Source: Actinomycetales bacterium (lineage in GTDB: Bacteria > Actinomycetota > Actinomycetes > Actinomycetales > Microbacteriaceae). From it: a DNA stretch of 64,000 nt. Each line of letters begins with the position of its first letter. The stretch's first letter is position 1. The position numbers were made by a program, and so were the translations under genes. Positions 6,875 through 60,394 of this stretch are shown here, in pieces. The stretch covers positions 1,247 to 65,246 of the forward strand of contig JBBRWT010000001.1 in assembly GCA_038249035.1 (NCBI GenBank), in the 5' to 3' direction. Under the pieces are notes generated by a model that saw only the letters and a list, made by a program, of their open reading frames with translations, had not been told where the DNA came from and did no database searches.

Positions 6875-7351
6875 TCAGCCCGCGTCGGGGGCGGCTGGCG
6901 CGGTGCCGTGCTCGATGCGCAGCTGCGAGATCGCCGACTCGAAGTCGTCGAGGTTCTCGAAGGCCTGGTACACGCTGGCAAAGCGCAAAAATGCGACCTC
7001 ATCGAGCTGGCGCAGCTCAGGCAGAATGGCGAGACCGATGTCATTCGCGTCGAGTTGAGAGGCTCCTGTGGCGCGCAGGTTCTCTTCGACCTTTTGCGCC
7101 AGTTGCGCCAAATCGGCATCGGTCACGGGCCGACCTTGGCACGCCTTGCGCACGCCGAGCACGATCTTCTCGCGCGAGAACGGCTCGACCACACCGCTGC
7201 GCTTAATGACCATGAGGCTCGCCGTCTCCGTGGTGCTAAAACGGCGGCCACACTCCGGGCACTGGCGACGGCGTCGGATCGAGAGCCCGTCATCGCTCGT
7301 TCGCGAGTCGATAACGCGGCTGTCGGGGTACCGGCAGAAGGGGCAGTGCAT
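6875..7351 (-). CDS. nrdR: transcriptional repressor NrdR
   Basis: N-terminal zinc ribbon MHCPFC...CPECGRRF followed by an ATP-cone domain. 158 aa. Confidence 0.95.
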
Positions 7352-7363
7352 GGTGGGGCCAGC

Positions 7364-8668
7364 CTAGAGGAAGCGTGCTCGCACGGCGTCGCCGTGGGCG
7401 GGCAGTTGCTCGGCGTCGCTGAGAGCCGCTATGTGGTCAGCGACCGCGGCCAGGGCATCCCGGTCGTACTCGACAATTTGTTGTGGGCGCAAGAAGGTGT
7501 ACGCGCCAAGACCAGAGGCGAAGCGCGCTTGACCACCCGTGGGCAGCACGTGATTGGAGCCGGCGATGTAGTCACCGAGGCTCACTGGCGTGTGGTCTCC
7601 GACGAAAATCGCGCCCGCGCTTTCGAGGTGCGGCAGCAGAGCGTGCGGGTCGGCGACCTGCACCTCGAGGTGCTCGGGGCCGTACGCGTTACTGAAACGG
7701 GCCGCCTGTGCGAGGTCGTCAACGAGGACCACTGCCGACTGCTCACCCTCGATCGCGGTCGTCACACGCTCTCGGTGCCGCGTGGCGGCGACAGCTGCCG
7801 GAAGAGCCCGCTGCACCGCATCTGCGAGGGCCACGTCGTCGGTAACGAGCACGCTACCGGCGAGCTCGTCGTGCTCGGCCTGACTGATCAGATCGGCGAC
7901 AACGTAGTCGGCGCGGGCCGTGCCGTCGGCAATGATCACGATCTCGGTCGGTCCGGCCTCAGAGTCGATGCCCACGACTCCCCTCACGGCACGTTTGGCC
8001 GTGGCGACGTAGAGGTTGCCAGGGCCCGTGATGACCTGCACGGGCTCGAGCCCCAGATCGGGCACACCATAAGCGAAGGCGCCGATCGCTCCGGCGCCAC
8101 CCATGGCATACACCTCATCGACGCCGAGCAGGGCAGCCGCGGCCAGGATCGTGGGGTGCACGCTGCCGCCGAACTCGGCTTGCGGGGGCGACGCCAGAGC
8201 GATCGAACGCACTCCCGCAACCTGCGCAGCAACAACGTTCATGACAACACTTGAGGGGTACACCGCCTTGCCACCCGGCACGTACAGCCCGACGCGCGCG
8301 ACCGGCTGCCAGCGCTGCACAATGCGAGCGCCGGGAGCGACCTCGGTCACCCGCTCGGCGGGCACCTGCGCCGTGGTCGTTCTGCGCACCCGGTCAATGG
8401 CCTCGTCGAGGGCCGCACGTACGGCAGGGTCGAGCCCCGCCTGGGCGACGCGAAACTGCTCAGCCGCCACGCGCACAGCAGCGGGTTTCACACGATCGAA
8501 GCGCTCGGCCTGATCGAGGAGGGCGGCGCTGCCGCGGTCGCGCACATCCTGAATCAGGGCGTCGACGGCGGGGACCGCTGACCCGACGTCTCTCGTCGCG
8601 CGCGGAACGAGGGCAAGCAGGTCGGCGGTGCTGAGGGCGCGGCCGCGCAAATCGAGGGTTCGCATCAT
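7364..8668 (-). CDS. hisD: histidinol dehydrogenase
   Basis: Motifs SQAEHD and GDYIAGSNHVLPTGG. 434 aa. Confidence 0.95.
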   Translation of the reverse strand: MMRTLDLRGRALSTADLLALVPRATRDVGSAVPAVDALIQDVRDRGSAALLDQAERFDRVKPAAVRVAAEQFRVAQAGLDPAVRAALDEAIDRVRRTTTAQVPAERVTEVAPGARIVQRWQPVARVGLYVPGGKAVYPSSVVMNVVAAQVAGVRSIALASPPQAEFGGSVHPTILAAAALLGVDEVYAMGGAGAIGAFAYGVPDLGLEPVQVITGPGNLYVATAKRAVRGVVGIDSEAGPTEIVIIADGTARADYVVADLISQAEHDELAGSVLVTDDVALADAVQRALPAAVAATRHRERVTTAIEGEQSAVVLVDDLAQAARFSNAYGPEHLEVQVADPHALLPHLESAGAIFVGDHTPVSLGDYIAGSNHVLPTGGQARFASGLGAYTFLRPQQIVEYDRDALAAVADHIAALSDAEQLPAHGDAVRARFL

Positions 8669-22371: not shown

Positions 22372-23872
22372 GAGACTCCCCCTCCAGGTGTTGCCGCACC
22401 GCGGTGGCAAAGCGGTCACCGCGGTCGGCGTAGTCGACGAACTGATCCATGGACGCCGCGGCCGGAGCGAGGAGCACGGTGTCACCACCCTGCGCCACGT
22501 CGGCGGCCAACCGCACCGCGGCAGGCATCACCCGATCAGTCTCGTCGTGGTCGACCTCGAACAGCGGCAGCGCGGGCGCGTGTCGCGCGAACGCCGCGCG
22601 CACAGCATCCCGTTCGACACCGATGATGATGGCGGCCCGCAGCCGATCGCGGTGCGTTGAAACGAGCGGCGCCAGGTCGACACCCTTGAGCAGCCCGCCA
22701 ACGATCCAGACCACTGAGCGGTAGGCGCTCAACGCCGACGCTGCCGCGTGTGGATTCGTGGCCTTAGAGTCGTCGACCCACGCGATGTCGGCATTGACCG
22801 CGACGAGCTCGGTGCGGTGCGCGTCGACGCGAAAGCGCCGCAGCGCATCGCGCACTGATGCAGGGGCGACACCAACTGCGCGCGCCAGGGCCGCGGCGGC
22901 GAGAGTATTTGCGAGGCCGTGCGGGGTCGCGAGACCCGCGGCCGCGACATCCGCGAGCTCGGCGAGCTCGAGGGCGGCCGTACGGCGCTCATCGAGAAAG
23001 GCGCGGTCGACGATCAGGTTGTCGACCACGCCGACGTCGCTGGGCCCGGGCACGGTTGCCCCGAACCCGATCGCCCGACAGCCCTCCTGCACCTCGGCCT
23101 CTTCGACCATGCGCATCGTGGCGGCGTCGCCGAGGTTATAGATACACGCGACCCGGGTGTGCGCATACACCTTGGACTTCGCGACGGCGTACCCCTCAGC
23201 ACTTCCGTGCCAGTCGTAGTGGTCTTCGGCAAGGTTCAGGCACACGCTCGCGAGCGGGAGCACCGCGCCGGGGCCCGATTCGGGCATCCAATGCAGCTGA
23301 AAACTCGAGAGTTCGACTACCAGTACATCGAACCCGGCCGGATCGCGCACGGCATCGAGCACGGGCACGCCGATGTTGCCGCACGGCGCGACTCGACGAC
23401 CATCTTCTTGCAGCATGGTCGCGGCCAGTTGGGTTGTGGTGGTCTTGCCGTTAGTGCCCGTGATCAGCACCCACTCGGCGGGCGGCGCCACCTTGTCGCG
23501 CACGCGCCAGGCCAGCTCGATGTCGCCCCACACCGGGATACCGCGCTCTTGGGCCCACACCACGAGCGGATGCTCTGGGCGGAAACCCGGCGAGACAATG
23601 ACGAGTTCGGGATCGAACTCGTCACAAGCGGCGGGCACCTGCTCGCCCGATTCGAGTTCGATGAGGTCGACACCGATCACGGTCAGGATGCGCGCTCGAT
23701 CGTCGTCGGGCCGGTGCGCTGCGACGAGCACACGTGATTCCAGTTCGGCGAGAGTGTCGGCGACGGCGAAACCGGTGACGCCGAGCCCCAGCACGAGCAC
23801 ACGCAAGCCAGACCAGTCGTCGTGCCAACTCTGCAAATCGTCTGGGCGCCCCACGGCTACTGGCTGACCCAT
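22331..23872 (-). CDS. murD: UDP-N-acetylmuramoylalanine--D-glutamate ligase
   Basis: P-loop GTNGKTTT and Mur ligase central and C-terminal domains. Confidence 0.93.
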
Positions 23873-24954
23873 TCGAGGTAGAACAGGCCGACGCCAACGG
23901 CCACGAACAGGCCGCCGATGAGCCAGAATCGCACAACGACGGTGACCTCTGCCCAGCCCTTCAGCTCGAAGTGGTGGTGCAACGGACTCATTAAGAAGAT
24001 GCGTTTGCCTTTAGTGATCTTGAAGTAGGCCCGCTGCAGAATCACCGAGCCCGTGACGATGAGGAACAGCCCGCCGATGAGCACGAGTAGTAGTTCGGTG
24101 CGGGTCAGGATGGCGAGCGCAGCGAGAGCACCGCCGATGGCGAGCGAGCCGGTATCACCCATGAAGATCTGGGCGGGCGAGGTGTTCCACCAGAGAAACC
24201 CGATGAGGCTTGCCGCGATGGCCGCTGCGACGATGGCGAGATCCAGCGAGTCACGAACCTCGTAGCACCGGTAGACGTTGTCCCGGTCGATCAAGTCGTT
24301 GAAGCACGACTGGTTGAACTGCCAGAAGGCAATGAAGATATACGCAGCGATGGAGAGGATCGAGGCTCCCGTCGCGAGTCCGTCGAGACCGTCAGCCACA
24401 TTGACGGCGTTCGACGTGCTCACGACGATCACGTTGACCCAGATCGCGAAGAGAATTACTGCGCCGATCGAGCCAGCGATCGCCAGATCGAGCCAGTGGA
24501 TGTCGCGCACTGCGGAGATCATCGTTGACGCAGGCGTCTCGCCGTTCTCGTCGGGGAACGACAGCGCGAGCACGGCAAACACCGTGGCAACGACTGCCTG
24601 GCCGGCGATCTTGGCCCAGCCCCCCAGCCCCAGGCTGCGCTGCTTGCGCGTCTTGGTGAAGTCGTCAATGAACCCGATCAGTCCGAGCCCCACCATGAGA
24701 AGCAGCACAAGCAATGCGCTGAAAGTGATTGGTTCGCCGCTGACGACGTGACCAAAGAAGTAGCCGAGCACTGACCCCAGAATGAAGACGATGCCGCCCA
24801 TGGTCGGCGTTCCGCGCTTTGTGTGATGCGACTGCGGGCCGTCGTCGCGAATGAATTGGCCCCACTCGAGGCGGTTGAAGAGCCGGATAAACAAAGGCGT
24901 CAGCAACAGCGTGAACGCCAGCGAGAACGCTCCAGCGAGCATCAGCGCGATCAT
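23857..24954 (-). CDS. mraY: phospho-N-acetylmuramoyl-pentapeptide transferase
   Basis: Motifs GFIDDFTK and [13 protein letters not shown]. Ten-TM profile. Confidence 0.95.
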
Positions 24955-25607
24955 TGCTCAGCCTCGACGAGTCGAGCGACCAGGCGGTCGAGAGGGGTTC
25001 GGGATGCGGCGCTCACCAAAACCACATCCCCTTCATGGACCTGCGCACGCAGCACATCGTATGCCTGCTCAAGTGTGTCGACGAGGATCGACTCTCCGTC
25101 CCACGAGCCTTCAAGCCCCGCAGCGTTGTGAATGTGGCGGGCGCCCTCTGCCACCACAATCAGCTGGCCGATGTCGAGCCGCACCACAATGCGCCCGAGA
25201 GCGTCGTGATCGTCGAACCAGTCGGCGGGCTCGGATTCGAGCTCGCCGAGCACGGCAAATGAGCGCGCACGACCGCGCGCAAGATCGGCGAGCACACGCA
25301 GTGCTGCGCGCACCTCCAGCGCCGTGCTCGAGCCGGTGTCGTCGAGTAGCAGGGCGCCGTTGGACAGTTCACGTCGTGCCGTGCGCCCGGGAATGTCGGT
25401 GATGCTTCGCGAAATGGCCTCGACTGCCGTGGCCAGGGTCTCGCCAGCCCCGAGCCGCTCGTCGATGAGGGCGAGGGCGGCGTCGACGGACACCTGCCCC
25501 ACCGCGTCGAGCTGTAGTTCGACCTGATGGTCATTAACGCGCACGAGAACGAGCGAACCCTCGAGGCGGTACACGACGTCGTCAACAACGATCGTGGAGG
25601 GCATCAT
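24951..25607 (-). CDS. murF: truncated, motif-degenerate MurF-like protein (C-terminal half only; possibly a pseudogene remnant)
   Basis: Occupies the murF slot. The 218 codons align by eye to roughly the last 200 residues of MurF. There is no P-loop and no N-terminal domain. The ORF is open, starts 4 nt after the murE TAA and overlaps mraY by ATGA. Confidence 0.6.
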
Positions 25608-25611
25608 CGCG

Positions 25612-27147
25612 TTACCAGCCCGCTTCGCGCAAGGCCGCTCGGGCCTCGTCGCGTGCCGAATAGTCGGTGCGCACACCGCGAATGTCTCGGTAGTCCTGAT
25701 GGCCGGGGCCCGCCCAGAGGATGGAGTCACCCTGCCGCGCGAGATTGACTGCAACCCGGATGGCCTTCTCGGGCGGACTCACCTCGTGGATTTCGGGTGA
25801 ATTCGACGCAAGAGCTGCGCCTTCGAGCAGCGTGGCCCTGATCGAGGCCGGATCTTCGAATCGCGGATGGTGGTCGGTAATAACGAGCACATCGCACCCC
25901 TCGGCCGCCACGCGAGCCATCTCGTGCCGCTTCGTCGCGTCGCGGTCACCATCAGCCCCAAAAACCATAATTGTGCGTCCGCTCGTAAATCCCCGAACGG
26001 CAGCCAGAGTGTTTTCGAAAGCGTCGGCACTGTGGCCGAAGTCTACGTAGACGCTCGGCCCGCTATCACCCGAGACGCGCTCCGTGCGACCCGGCAGATA
26101 CGCGTTAACGCCCGCAGTGGCGAGCGCCGCGGCGATCGTGTCGAGCGCGATACCCGACTCGACGAGCATGACGATCGCGAGTCCGGCGTTGGCGGCCATG
26201 TGCCCGCCGATGAGCGGCACCCGAGTCTCAATCGACTGTTCTTCGGGGCCTACGAGCCGAAACCCGGTGTGGGCCGGGTGCTCGTCGGTGATCTCGACGC
26301 GCCAGTCGGCCGCGACGTGGGGGCGCGAGGCAATCGTGACGACTGGGATACGCGCCGCATCCACCACTCGCGCCCCGTACGGCGAATCAAGCGACACGAC
26401 CCCGCGTCGTCCCCGATCCTCGAAAAACAGTGGCACCTTTGCCGCGAAGTACTCGTCCATGTCGGCGTAGTCGTCGAGGTGATCGTGCGTGAGATTGGTG
26501 AAGCCGACCACGTCGAACAGCAGACCATCAACACGGTGACGGCTGAGCGCCTGCGCGCTGACCTCGACGGCCACAGCCTCGACTCCGGCCTCGCGCATGC
26601 GGGCTAATAGGGCGTGCATCTCACTCGCCTCGGGGGTGGTCAAGCGGCTGACGACCGTGAGTTCGCCGATGTGGCGCTCGGCGGTTGAGCTGAGTCCGGT
26701 GACGAGGCCCAGTTGGCGCAGGATGCCCTCGAGCAAGTATGCCGTCGAGGTCTTGCCGTTCGTCCCGGTGACGCCGAGCATAAGCGGCGGATGCTCGCGC
26801 GTTCGATAAACCCATGCCGAGATCTCACCGAGCGACGAGCGTGGGTCATCGACGACCACGACCGGTAGTCCGGACTGCTCGGCGACCAGGAGTCCTTCGC
26901 GGTCGGTCAAGACGGCCACCGCGCCCGCTGCGGCTGCGTCGCTTGCGAACTCTGCTCCGTGGCGGTTCGCACCGCGCAAACCCACGAACAGGTCACCTGA
27001 CCGCAGGTCGCCTGTCGACAGTGTCACCCCCGTGAGGACGACGCCCTCGGCAACCCCGTGGTGCTCAAGGCGAAAAGCCTCAATGAGTCCGGCGAGCGGT
27101 CGGGGCTCGGGATGCTCGGGTCGCAAGACGGGGGGAATGCGAGACAA
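25612..27147 (-). CDS. murE: UDP-N-acetylmuramoyl-L-alanyl-D-glutamate--diamino acid ligase
   Basis: P-loop GVTGTNGKTST, plus FGADGDRDATKR and GPGHQDY. The DNPR specificity motif is replaced by HHPR. Confidence 0.93.
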   Translation of the reverse strand: MSRIPPVLRPEHPEPRPLAGLIEAFRLEHHGVAEGVVLTGVTLSTGDLRSGDLFVGLRGANRHGAEFASDAAAAGAVAVLTDREGLLVAEQSGLPVVVVDDPRSSLGEISAWVYRTREHPPLMLGVTGTNGKTSTAYLLEGILRQLGLVTGLSSTAERHIGELTVVSRLTTPEASEMHALLARMREAGVEAVAVEVSAQALSRHRVDGLLFDVVGFTNLTHDHLDDYADMDEYFAAKVPLFFEDRGRRGVVSLDSPYGARVVDAARIPVVTIASRPHVAADWRVEITDEHPAHTGFRLVGPEEQSIETRVPLIGGHMAANAGLAIVMLVESGIALDTIAAALATAGVNAYLPGRTERVSGDSGPSVYVDFGHSADAFENTLAAVRGFTSGRTIMVFGADGDRDATKRHEMARVAAEGCDVLVITDHHPRFEDPASIRATLLEGAALASNSPEIHEVSPPEKAIRVAVNLARQGDSILWAGPGHQDYRDIRGVRTDYSARDEARAALREAGW

Positions 27148-57865: not shown

Positions 57866-60394
57866 GTGAAACTAGTCGTCGTCGGCGGAGTCGCCGCCGG
57901 AGCATCCATTGCCGCGCGCACCCGTCGTCTCGACGAGTTCGCCGAGATCATCGTTCTGGAGCGCGGCCACCACGTCTCGTTTGCGAACTGTGGGCTGCCG
58001 TACTTCATCGGCGGAGTCATCACCGACCGCAGCCGGCTGCTCGTGCAGACCCCCGAATCTCTGCGCGAAGCCCTCGACCTCGACGTGCGCGTCGGAAACG
58101 AGGTCGTGTCGATCGACCGCGCCGCCAAGACGGTCACCGTGCGCCGAGTCGATGACGGCACCGAATACACCGAGTCGTACGATGCGCTTGCCCTCACCCC
58201 CGGCGCCGAGGCGGTGCGGCCCCCGATTCCCGGCATTGACCTTGACGGAGTGCACGTGTTGCGCCGCATGGGCGACATGGACCAGATCAAGGCGCAGCTG
58301 GATGCCCTGCTTACCGAGGCAGCCTCCGGCCGCCGCGGCCCCGTGCGTGCGGTGGTGATCGGCGCGGGCTACATCGGGCTCGAGATGGCCGAGAATCTGC
58401 GGCACCGCGGCGCCGAGGTCGATGTTGTGGAGCTCGCCGACCAGATTTTGCCGCCCATCGACCATGAACTCTCGGTACCAGTCGAGTCGCACTTGCGCAG
58501 CAGAGGCGTCGCCGTACACCTCGAGACCGGCGCTGCGGCGCTGCGCGAAGCCGACGGTGGCATCGACGTCGAACTGACCAACCACGAGGTGCTTCGCGCC
58601 GATCTCGTGATTCTGTCAGCTGGAGTACGGCCGAACACCGCTCTAGCTCGCGAGGCAGGCCTCGAGTTGGGCGCACACGGCGGCATTGCCGTCGACACAC
58701 ACATGCGCACGTCTGACCCCTTCATCTGGGCCGCCGGTGACGCTGTCGAGACCCCCAACACCGTGTTGCCGGGCTCGGGGCTCTCGCCCTTAGCTGGTCC
58801 GGCTAATCGAGAGGCGCGCGTCGCCGCCGAGAACATTTGCGGTCGCGACACCGAATACCACTCAACGCAGGGCACCTCGATCGTCAAGGTGTTCGACATG
58901 GTAGCGGGGGGCACGGGCGCAACCCAGCGCCAGCTGATCGCGGCGGGAGTGCCGCACCGCGCGGTTCACGTGCACCCTTCGGGCCACGCGGGTTACTACC
59001 CCGGCACCGCCATGATGCACCTCAAGGTCGTCTTCGACCCCGAGACGGGTCGTGTGCTCGGCGGCCAGGCTGCGGGCTTCGACGGGGTCGACAAGCGCAT
59101 CGATGTGCTGAGCGTTGCCGTGCGCAATCGGCTGACGGTTTTTGACCTCGAAGAGCTCGAGTTGGCTTACGCCCCGCCGTTCGGTTCGGCGAAAGACCCG
59201 ATTAACATGGTGGGCTTCGTGGCGAGCAACGTCGTTCGGGGCGACCTCGAGCTCTGGTACGCCGAGGATTACCCGGCAGCGGTCGAGGGCACCCGCGTCA
59301 TCGACGTACGCACGCCGGAAGAGTTCGGCATTTGGCACTTGCCCGGTGCCGAGAATGTGCCGCTCGCAACCCTTCGGTCGGTGTGCGGCGACTGGGATAC
59401 CGGTGCCCCGATCCGGCTCTACTGCGCCGTCGGATTCCGGTCGTACCTGGCGTATCGCTCGCTGCGGCAGCGCGGTTTTACTGACCTCAAGACTCTGTCG
59501 GGCGGCTCAACCACGTTCCGCGCCTGGCACGAGCTCGACGAGCCCGATGTGGCAGCGCAACGCGAGCCGATGGAGAACTACGCCGAGACGCACTCGCTGT
59601 TCGCGCTCGTCCCGACCGGCGTCGGCGCATCCATCGATCTCGATTGCACCGGTCTGGCCTGCCCCGGCCCGATCATGCGCCTGGCTGAGACTGTCACGGC
59701 CGCTAACGCGGGCGACGAAGTCACCGTGCACGTCTCTGACCCGGGATTCGCATCGGATGCCCCTGCCTGGGTGAAGCGCAGTGGCCACCAGCTCGTCTCA
59801 ATCGAGCCGGAAGGCCCGGGCTACGTCGCCGTTATTCGCAAGGGCGGCGCGGGCACGATGGCGTCGGCGAGGTCGGCCAGCAGAGGTACCAGCAGCGGTG
59901 CCGGCGGCGGCATTGTCAACGGCCCGGGCAAGACCTCATTCGTCGTGTTCTCGGGCGACATGGACAAGGTGCTCGCCTCGTTCATCATCGCCAATGGTGC
60001 TCTCGCGATGGGCGAAGAGGTGTCGATGTTCTTCACCTTCTGGGGGCTCAACGCGCTGCGACGCGAGCAGCCGCCGAAGCGCGAGAAGAAGTTGATGGAC
60101 CGCATGTTCGGCATGATGATGCCCTCCAGTGCCCAGCACTTGCCGCTCTCGACCATGAACATGGCAGGCATGGGGCCGGTGATGATCAAGAGCGTCATGA
60201 AGCATCACAACGTGCCGTCGCTGCCCGAACTCATTGCCTCAGCGCATACCGGCGGCGCGCGCCTCATCGGCTGCACGATGACCATGGACCTGCTCGGCAT
60301 CGCCCATAGCGACCTCATGGATGGAGTGGAGTTGGGCGGCGTCGCGACGTTCCTCGGTGAGGCCTCAGAGTCGACCACGACGCTGTTCATCTGA
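57866..60394 (+). CDS. four-domain fusion: CoA-disulfide/persulfide reductase + rhodanese + TusA-like + DsrE-like
   Basis: Redox Cys SFANCGLPY in an FAD/NAD(P) oxidoreductase; rhodanese loop CAVGFRS; TusA motif CPGP; and a C-terminal DsrE-like domain with LIGCTMT. 842 aa. Confidence 0.88.
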   Translation: MKLVVVGGVAAGASIAARTRRLDEFAEIIVLERGHHVSFANCGLPYFIGGVITDRSRLLVQTPESLREALDLDVRVGNEVVSIDRAAKTVTVRRVDDGTEYTESYDALALTPGAEAVRPPIPGIDLDGVHVLRRMGDMDQIKAQLDALLTEAASGRRGPVRAVVIGAGYIGLEMAENLRHRGAEVDVVELADQILPPIDHELSVPVESHLRSRGVAVHLETGAAALREADGGIDVELTNHEVLRADLVILSAGVRPNTALAREAGLELGAHGGIAVDTHMRTSDPFIWAAGDAVETPNTVLPGSGLSPLAGPANREARVAAENICGRDTEYHSTQGTSIVKVFDMVAGGTGATQRQLIAAGVPHRAVHVHPSGHAGYYPGTAMMHLKVVFDPETGRVLGGQAAGFDGVDKRIDVLSVAVRNRLTVFDLEELELAYAPPFGSAKDPINMVGFVASNVVRGDLELWYAEDYPAAVEGTRVIDVRTPEEFGIWHLPGAENVPLATLRSVCGDWDTGAPIRLYCAVGFRSYLAYRSLRQRGFTDLKTLSGGSTTFRAWHELDEPDVAAQREPMENYAETHSLFALVPTGVGASIDLDCTGLACPGPIMRLAETVTAANAGDEVTVHVSDPGFASDAPAWVKRSGHQLVSIEPEGPGYVAVIRKGGAGTMASARSASRGTSSGAGGGIVNGPGKTSFVVFSGDMDKVLASFIIANGALAMGEEVSMFFTFWGLNALRREQPPKREKKLMDRMFGMMMPSSAQHLPLSTMNMAGMGPVMIKSVMKHHNVPSLPELIASAHTGGARLIGCTMTMDLLGIAHSDLMDGVELGGVATFLGEASESTTTLFI

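Follow-up and report, generated by a model that had tools for sequence, protein, structure and literature searches.

MurF is an essential enzyme and an antibiotic target, and it is usually seen as a catalyst only. A wider view is offered by MurE-MurF chimeras and proposed Mur complexes, which lend support to structural and contact roles beyond catalysis and to co-assembly as the basis of the murE-murF-mraY gene order (PMC10214165, PMC6420597). In Actinobacteria, extra murF copies have been found outside the division and cell wall (dcw) cluster, in van-like clusters (PMC8698665). In the Microbacteriaceae, the genome of Pontimonas salivibrio has no MurF named between murE and mraY, and its annotated MurF lies outside the cluster (PMC6106888). 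Here, we analyzed a 64,000-nucleotide (nt) stretch of contig JBBRWT010000001.1 (hereafter the window) from an Actinomycetales bacterium of the same family (assembly GCA_038249035.1). Between murE and mraY, its dcw cluster carries a short murF-derived gene (positions 24951-25607, minus strand; 218 codons plus stop) whose product corresponds to a stand-alone MurF C-terminal half. The product resembles canonical MurF (TIGR01143; E. coli 1GG4, A. baumannii 4QDI) in homology and fold over the last ~200 residues and in its murE-mraY position, and it shares a conserved lineage-specific block with full-length Microbacteriaceae MurFs such as P0128. In contrast to canonical MurF, it has no N-terminal domain, lacks ~70% of the central domain and has neither the P-loop nor the cleft motifs. 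Our literature searches on Microcella, Rhodoluna and Microbacteriaceae found no paper on a truncated cluster murF, the query "truncated/absent murF" returning only the muscle protein MuRF, and no curated family was found for the short protein. The explanation that we favor, and consider rather probable, is that it is a MurF C-terminal domain without catalytic activity, domesticated and still serving an ancestral second function, and that another MurF adds D-Ala-D-Ala.

A MurF C-terminal half between murE and mraY

The dcw cluster lies on the minus strand and follows the actinobacterial standard, with mraZ, rsmH, an ftsL-like gene, ftsI, murE, the short gene, mraY, murD, ftsW, murG, murC, ftsQ and ftsZ. 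The upstream neighbor murE (25612-27147, minus strand; 511 amino acids [aa]) is canonical, with the N, M and C domains of Pfam, the P-loop GTNGKT and a TIGR01085 score of 353.8 against a cutoff of 257.3. The downstream neighbor mraY (23857-24954, minus strand; 365 aa) matches Glycos_transf_4 and MraY_sig1 of Pfam. The murE stop and the mraY start are separated by about 654 nt, compared with 1393-1432 nt in relatives with a full-length murF. The slot is thus far too short for a normal murF, as had been claimed in a preliminary description of the window that also recognized a 218-codon remnant, open and translationally coupled. Both junctions are as described there. The murE stop TAA (25612-25614) is followed by a 4-nt spacer (cgcg) and the start ATG (25605-25607), the junction spanning 25605-25614 on the minus strand, and the gene begins with ATGATG when read from 25607. 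At its other end, the stop TGA overlaps the mraY start in an ATGA (24951-24954, minus strand). Open reading frames (ORFs) as long as 218 codons are frequent in 65% GC DNA, and it is because of homology and conservation, not the open frame alone, that we regard this one as a gene.

The only Pfam match of the 218-aa product was Mur_ligase_C (PF02875), with 35.7 bits (gathering threshold 28.4) over residues 74-201 and profile positions 1-126 of 127. On the NCBIfam murF model (TIGR01143) it scored 54.6 bits (cutoff 288.6) and aligned to model positions 220-417 of 418; P0128, a full-length relative, reaches 387.6 on this model. The top PDB sequence matches of a profile of the short family were MurF, including residues 251-447 of E. 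coli 1gg4. An AlphaFold2 model of the product had a predicted local distance difference test (pLDDT) of 94.2 and a predicted template modeling (TM) score (pTM) of 0.90, and Foldseek placed it, at query-normalised TM scores of 0.74-0.78, on the C-terminal halves of the MurF proteins of A. baumannii, E. coli, T. maritima and P. aeruginosa. Judged from the Pfam, NCBIfam and PDB profile matches, the short product is a homologue of the last ~200 MurF residues, which had previously been proposed from an alignment by eye. The suggested comparison of a predicted structure with the MurF C-terminal domain agrees, the model superposing on MurF with a TM score of up to 0.78.

Residues 1-75 (25383-25607, minus strand) represent the leftover end of the MurF central domain, a three-stranded beta sheet with two helices that aligns to residues ~254-330 of P0128 and carries a degenerate GxHxxxN motif (GQVSVDA). 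Residues 76-218 (24954-25382, minus strand) form the Mur_ligase_C domain. Within it, translation and conservation delimit a hyper-conserved block at residues 134-173 (25089-25208, minus strand), a candidate site of a retained non-catalytic function. The pattern GxxGK[TS] is absent from all 218 aa, as are the N-terminal domain and any match to the central domain PF08245. The P-loop had been described as lost here and kept in MurC, MurD and MurE, and our motif check agrees: MurE has GTNGKT from residue 128, MurD GTNGKT from residue 139 and MurC GAHGKS from residue 121. All three paralogues score above their NCBIfam cutoffs, and MurD is canonical (TIGR01087, 367 bits).

The short family was then set against 52 full-length Microbacteriaceae MurFs over the common region. 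Among the 95 positions conserved at ≥90% in the full-length proteins, 54 were lost or changed in the short family and 41 were kept. The lost positions cluster in GEHxxxNA (38-46), RAERWRME (70-77), INDAYNASPDS (88-98), GEMxELG (123-127) and KSS (199-201), motifs that line the active-site cleft of Mur ligases. The eroded versions quoted in the preliminary description, including SAASR, were all seen in the translation, and its account proved accurate wherever details were checked. The 41 kept positions are concentrated in residues 134-173 (HDxxGRxxVRL…L.V.G..ARH…AA.LEGSW.GES), and a single position is newly conserved in the short family but not in full-length MurFs. With scarcely any newly conserved position, the short protein keeps one ancestral part and has gained no new motifs. 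Actinobacterial MurFs typically have this block: the pattern EGSW[DN]GES occurs in at least 599 stretches of GTDB genomes, and the block is borne by P0128, the best full-length relative, which has a normal murE-murF-mraY context. Lacking a P-loop, Mg/ATP residues, the UDP-binding domain and the substrate-cleft motifs, the 218-aa product alone cannot, as far as its sequence tells, be a ligase. By TIGR01143 score, three-domain architecture, P-loop and motifs of the retained half it falls outside the MurF ligases, and by descent, by the fold of the C-terminal half and by its murE-mraY position it belongs with MurF.

A 102-codon ORF (24954-25262, plus strand; G+C content at third codon positions [GC3] 0.81) runs antisense to the short gene (GC3 0.74), and a crude GC3-based gene caller chose it over the short gene. 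In high-GC DNA such a frame is most likely a shadow ORF, and it illustrates how simple gene callers could mis-annotate the murE-mraY slot.

Conservation in Microcella and independent truncations

A search of 5.8 billion proteins found 345 relatives of the short protein. The best 120 of these 345 were all 140-233 aa long (most 212-220 aa), with 44-100% identity, and their named sources were Microcella or Yonghaparkia, with no others. More than 100 homologues of 212-233 aa, close in size to the window protein, are thus known from this group. The isolate genome of M. frigidaquae has murE (511 aa), the short gene (219 aa) and mraY (365 aa) joined by 4-nt overlaps. A slot of 643-657 nt is also present in M. 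alkaliphila AC4r, M. alkalica DSM 19663, Yonghaparkia Root332 and many metagenome-assembled genomes (MAGs), and WP_267737387, the M. daejeonensis copy of the protein, has 215 aa. The orthologous locus in related Microbacteriaceae, a comparison that the preliminary description had called for, therefore holds the short gene in isolates too, and no normal murF was found in the Microcella slot. An assembly deletion, one of four options raised in that description, is refuted by the presence of the same short gene in the same slot in these five isolates and in dozens of MAGs. More broadly, an assembly collapse or a recent MAG-specific deletion had nothing for it but the short slot, and the identical layout in isolates and many independent assemblies leaves it with next to no probability. 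At the murE junction, relatives have 4-nt overlaps (ATGA or GTGA) where the window has its 4-nt spacer. A programmed frameshift producing a MurE-remnant fusion was also rejected, as the junction varies among species and the murE frame hits a stop about ten codons downstream.

An alignment of 29 members of the short family has 40 invariant columns, with identity to the window protein down to 43%. We estimated ratios of nonsynonymous to synonymous substitution rates (dN/dS) by the Nei-Gojobori method (NG86); dS was near saturation except in the closest pairs, the only trustworthy ones, and the medians for the closest genomes were 0.26 for the short gene, 0.10 for murE and 0.06 for mraY. Within the short gene, the N-terminal remnant (residues 1-75) is relaxed, with a dN/dS of 0.47, and the C-terminal domain has a value of 0.14. 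By these ratios the gene is under purifying selection as a predicted small folded protein, which answers the earlier call for a dN/dS estimate. A recent pseudogene, another of the options, is incompatible with the constant length despite divergence to 45% identity, the 40 invariant residues and the low ratios over the whole gene and the C-terminal domain. The view that the gene is maintained held up, given a same-length family throughout the genus and the ratio of its C-terminal domain. Catalytic residues have been lost while purifying selection acts on the remaining fold, and the short protein is on these grounds a putative Mur-ligase-derived pseudoenzyme.

Profile searching of 1.84 billion representative proteins, together with a scan of GTDB, brought up further short forms in the murE-mraY slot (L numbers denote extracted loci). 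Homoserinimonas (L033, L058) and locus L005 encode forms of 295-312 aa, some with a P-loop-like GSVGKT, that lack the N-terminal domain and an internal central-domain segment of ~60 residues. In a MAG labeled "Glaciihabitans" (L026), the start of a 173-aa form resembles, by eye, the MurF N-terminus joined straight to the C-terminal domain; the arrangement of a 181-aa form from a Galbitalea MAG (L039) is less clear. The isolate MWH-Ta3 (L060) has a form of 146 aa, a Microcella-like MAG (L024) one of 154 aa and the isolate Glaciihabitans arcticus one of 219 aa, the last being a database match and not among the extracted loci. All extracted short forms are intact ORFs that overlap both neighbors through GTGA or ATGA, the ATGA-type overlap with mraY being conserved in every truncated lineage extracted, and all bear the 40-residue block HDxxGRxxVRL…ARHxHxAAxLEGSWxGES almost unchanged. 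The equivalent of residues 1-75, the central-domain remnant, is entirely absent from the forms of 146-181 aa. The Mur_ligase_C domain is retained in every truncated lineage (L024, L026, L039, L060, L033, L058).

In a single-protein neighbor-joining tree of MraY (100 bootstraps; MAG labels as deposited), the truncated lineages were monophyletic in 0/100 replicates. L026 and L039 nested among full-length Galbitalea/Glaciihabitans taxa in 98/100, and Microcella grouped with MWH-Ta3 in 80/100. From this non-monophyly and the different breakpoints it follows that, on the evidence of the tree and the alignments, the cluster murF is truncated at least three times independently in Microbacteriaceae, with products of 146-312 aa, each truncation sparing the C-terminal domain. 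Neither the recurrent truncation nor the retention of the ancestral block was foreseen in the preliminary description.

These data also bear on whether the short gene could be a functionless relic, its frame kept only for the coupling signals and the spacing needed by mraY expression and its protein idle. The overlaps at both ends, with murE at the start and with mraY at the stop, are conserved throughout, and the relaxed N-terminal 75 residues are dispensable in some lineages, as such a relic would predict. However, coupling needs just the last few codons, yet ~140 residues evolve at a dN/dS of 0.14, and they are predicted to form a confidently folded domain (pLDDT 94). In addition, the block is near-identical in independently truncated lineages, and related lineages have dropped murE cleanly, which indicates that deletion of a Mur-ligase gene from the cluster is tolerated. 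We therefore consider an idle protein very unlikely.

The murE-less arrangement occurs in many dcw clusters of Salinibacterium, Rhodoglobus and "Leifsonia SCN", where ftsI is followed by a full-length murF (~465 aa) and then mraY (L035:1403-5724; also L029, L032, L034, L036, L037, L040, L042, L045, L047, L049, L055, L062, L065, L072 and L086). It is the mirror image of the Microcella arrangement, and MurE may likewise be displaced in these lineages. A query with Rhodoglobus MurE gave no Salinibacterium-named protein among the best 120 matches, all of which had ≥70% identity and most of which were unnamed. At L091:510-2736, the murE position upstream of a full-length murF has only fragments in it, namely a transpeptidase piece of 213 aa, several small ORFs and a Mur_ligase_C piece of 117 aa; this is a murE in decay or an assembly of poor quality. 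In another protein, P0169 (368 aa), ~150 N-terminal residues with a GxGxxA-type start, by eye similar to an FAD/NAD-binding oxidoreductase, are fused to a MurF C-terminal half whose NDAYNANP and GxMGELG motifs are intact. A rearrangement or a chimeric contig is the probable origin.

A proposed second role and the probable source of MurF activity

We propose that a second MurF would have made catalysis by the cluster copy dispensable, after which deletions would have stripped its catalytic parts, namely the whole N-terminal domain and the larger share of the central, ATP-binding one. The C-terminal domain would have been kept for a second function, presumably missing from the incoming enzyme and sited in the polar block at residues 134-173. 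By fold topology, the EGSW loop of this block, which connects a helix to the strand that follows, is expected on the face of the sheet away from the active-site cleft. The second function would most likely be a protein-protein contact or a regulatory role during the synthesis of peptidoglycan precursors, at its cytoplasmic or its membrane steps. Because of the fixed gene position, the coupling and the published Mur-enzyme assemblies, our guess for the partner would be MraY, MurG, MurE or a regulator, and translational coupling to murE and mraY would give matched protein amounts. The active MurF would then be encoded outside the cluster, probably by a xenolog beside ddl as in P. salivibrio. If this xenolog lacks the lineage-specific surface, the need to keep the old C-terminal domain would be explained.

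Reuse of a Mur ligase fold without catalysis has a precedent in plants. Foldseek also matched the model to PDB 8r6s chain Q and 9epc chain Q, the plant MurE-like PAP11, a non-catalytic structural subunit of the plastid-encoded RNA polymerase. The likeness is in kind only: PAP11 has the full three-domain architecture and serves transcription, whereas the short protein is a single C-terminal half encoded in a cell-wall operon.

The proposed location of the active enzyme draws on the P. salivibrio genome. Its Table S5 lists FtsI (C3B54_11975), MurE (11976), a "putative orf" (11977) and MraY (11978) in succession, and the sole annotated MurF (C3B54_11574) adjoins Ddl (11575) between gpsA/hydrolase and DUF3515/thiL (PMC6106888). 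For both MurF and Ddl, 3/10 top BlastP matches came from Microbacteriaceae, which the authors used as a flag for horizontal origin; Yonghaparkia, Microcella and Rhodoluna topped the Pontimonas BlastP lists unusually often, and trees rejected a closer kinship (PMC6106888). The paper is silent on C3B54_11977 (PMC6106888), whose kinship with the short family is presumed, and a query with the MWH-Ta3 protein gave no match bearing the Pontimonas name. By analogy, we infer a second, xenolog-like murF beside ddl that would be common to the lineages whose dcw murF is truncated. The murF copies of van-like clusters set a precedent for a second, horizontally mobile murF in the phylum; in contrast to what is envisaged here, they accompany vanHAX, van-like genes occur in <1% of Micrococcales genomes, and no tie to truncated dcw copies has been reported (PMC8698665). 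A remaining option of the preliminary description combined a full-length murF elsewhere with a retained or domesticated remnant. Of the four it has the best support, although indirect, through the Pontimonas table.

Other entries of that gene table depart from the usual arrangement as well. The only annotated MurD (C3B54_111517; 1/10 top BlastP matches from Microbacteriaceae) adjoins a "putative orf" in the neighborhood of rph/rdgB, the table contains no MurI, and the dcw murD position (C3B54_11979) is a "putative orf" (9/10) (PMC6106888). This suggests that several Mur steps have been displaced in the Pontimonas clade. The MurD arrangement resembles the MurD2/MurL system of an L-Glu-adding ligase and an epimerase. 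The MurD of the window itself is, as noted above, canonical.

Several points weigh against a domesticated domain relieved by a second MurF. Beyond the near saturation of dS outside the closest pairs, a hidden Markov model (HMM) of 52 full-length MurFs detected only four Mur-ligase genes in the window (murE, the remnant, murD and murC), detection of the paralogues serving as a sensitivity control; it superseded a phmmer scan that was too insensitive. Pfam annotation of 20 other large window ORFs revealed neither Ddl nor a Mur ligase. The best 80 GTDB matches contained no second MurF-like locus that came from a named Microcella genome, in a scan that sees only exact EGSW[DN]GES and would miss a divergent MurF. 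An out-of-cluster full-length MurF in Microcella, although most likely, is extrapolated from the Pontimonas gene table, and the conserved block is no more than a candidate functional site. Finally, the solved MurE-MurF contact, in a Bordetella chimera, is made through the N-terminal domain of MurF, a part missing from the short protein, and a role for a lone C-terminal domain is undescribed there (PMC10214165, PMC6420597).

The negative searches would also fit genomes that have no canonical MurF, in which an unknown route would add D-Ala-D-Ala or another C-terminal unit, the remnant being a bystander or a subunit. The best 120 database matches to the short protein, ranked by similarity to it, included no full-length protein, and the related lineages without a cluster murE point to an unusual plasticity of these steps. 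The nearest full-length relatives of the short family (P0128, P0153, P0174, P0175 and P0178) come without exception from dcw contexts in other organisms, and therefore none is an out-of-cluster paralogue. On the other hand, these negatives are weak, the scans being blind to a divergent MurF elsewhere, and P. salivibrio, with its unnamed orf between murE and mraY, does have an annotated MurF beside Ddl (PMC6106888). FtsI and MraY are also canonical. Convergent substitutions in the truncated lineages were seen in 0/219 conserved columns of MraY, and MurE had no consistent ones, which speaks against an adjustment of either protein to an altered pathway and suggests that the precursor is still an ordinary pentapeptide. 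An absence of canonical MurF thus seems unlikely to us, and so does the atypical D-Ala-D-Ala route that had been the last of the four earlier options.

The lack of convergent adaptation in MurE also speaks against a split, trans-acting ligase. Here the short protein would be a detachable amino-acid-binding domain that docks on a separate protein with the MurF N-terminal and central domains, or on MurE, two polypeptides together adding D-Ala-D-Ala. The part kept in every truncated lineage is exactly the Mur C-terminal domain, which binds the incoming amino acid, the gene stays directly after murE and translationally coupled, and MurE-MurF fusions are the commonest Mur chimeras (PMC10214165, PMC6420597). 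Yet the cleft motifs NDAYNANP, GEMxELG and KSS and the family-invariant Asn of GxHxxxN were lost convergently in independent lineages, and no partner with only the N-terminal and central domains is present in the 64-kb window. We hold such a split enzyme to be quite unlikely. Similarly improbable is a combination of these ideas, in which Microcella and the other truncated lineages would have no canonical MurF and would either let the lone C-terminal domain work in trans, for instance on MurE, as an exchangeable module for amino acid binding or have an undescribed type of ligase. If true, a step regarded as essential for peptidoglycan would proceed by an unknown mechanism in cultured bacteria.

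Annotation and significance

Database labels of the short proteins range from "glutamate ligase domain-containing protein" and "cyanophycin synthetase" to "MurF" and "hypothetical", and pathway reconstructions will miss or mis-call MurF in these genomes. Away from the dcw cluster, the window also has a gene for an 842-aa fusion (57866-60394, plus strand) of pyridine-nucleotide disulphide oxidoreductase, rhodanese, TusA and DsrE-like domains, a sulfur-trafficking architecture. A 448-aa ORF (6908-8254, plus strand) has codon statistics like those of coding sequence (GC3 0.74) and matches no Pfam family at E ≤ 1e-5.

Gene displacement followed by domestication, the likeliest picture, is not revolutionary; the recurrent, convergent retention of one domain is the surprising part, and one that is open to experiment. 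Catalysis has been lost repeatedly while the same ~140-residue domain was kept under a constraint near that of essential enzymes, which argues for a second, non-catalytic role of the MurF C-terminal domain in Actinobacteria. The natural truncations would split this second role from catalysis in culturable organisms (Microcella, Glaciihabitans arcticus and MWH-Ta3). With them, a scaffold role of Mur enzymes in a complex for precursor synthesis, which has been discussed for a long time, becomes directly testable.

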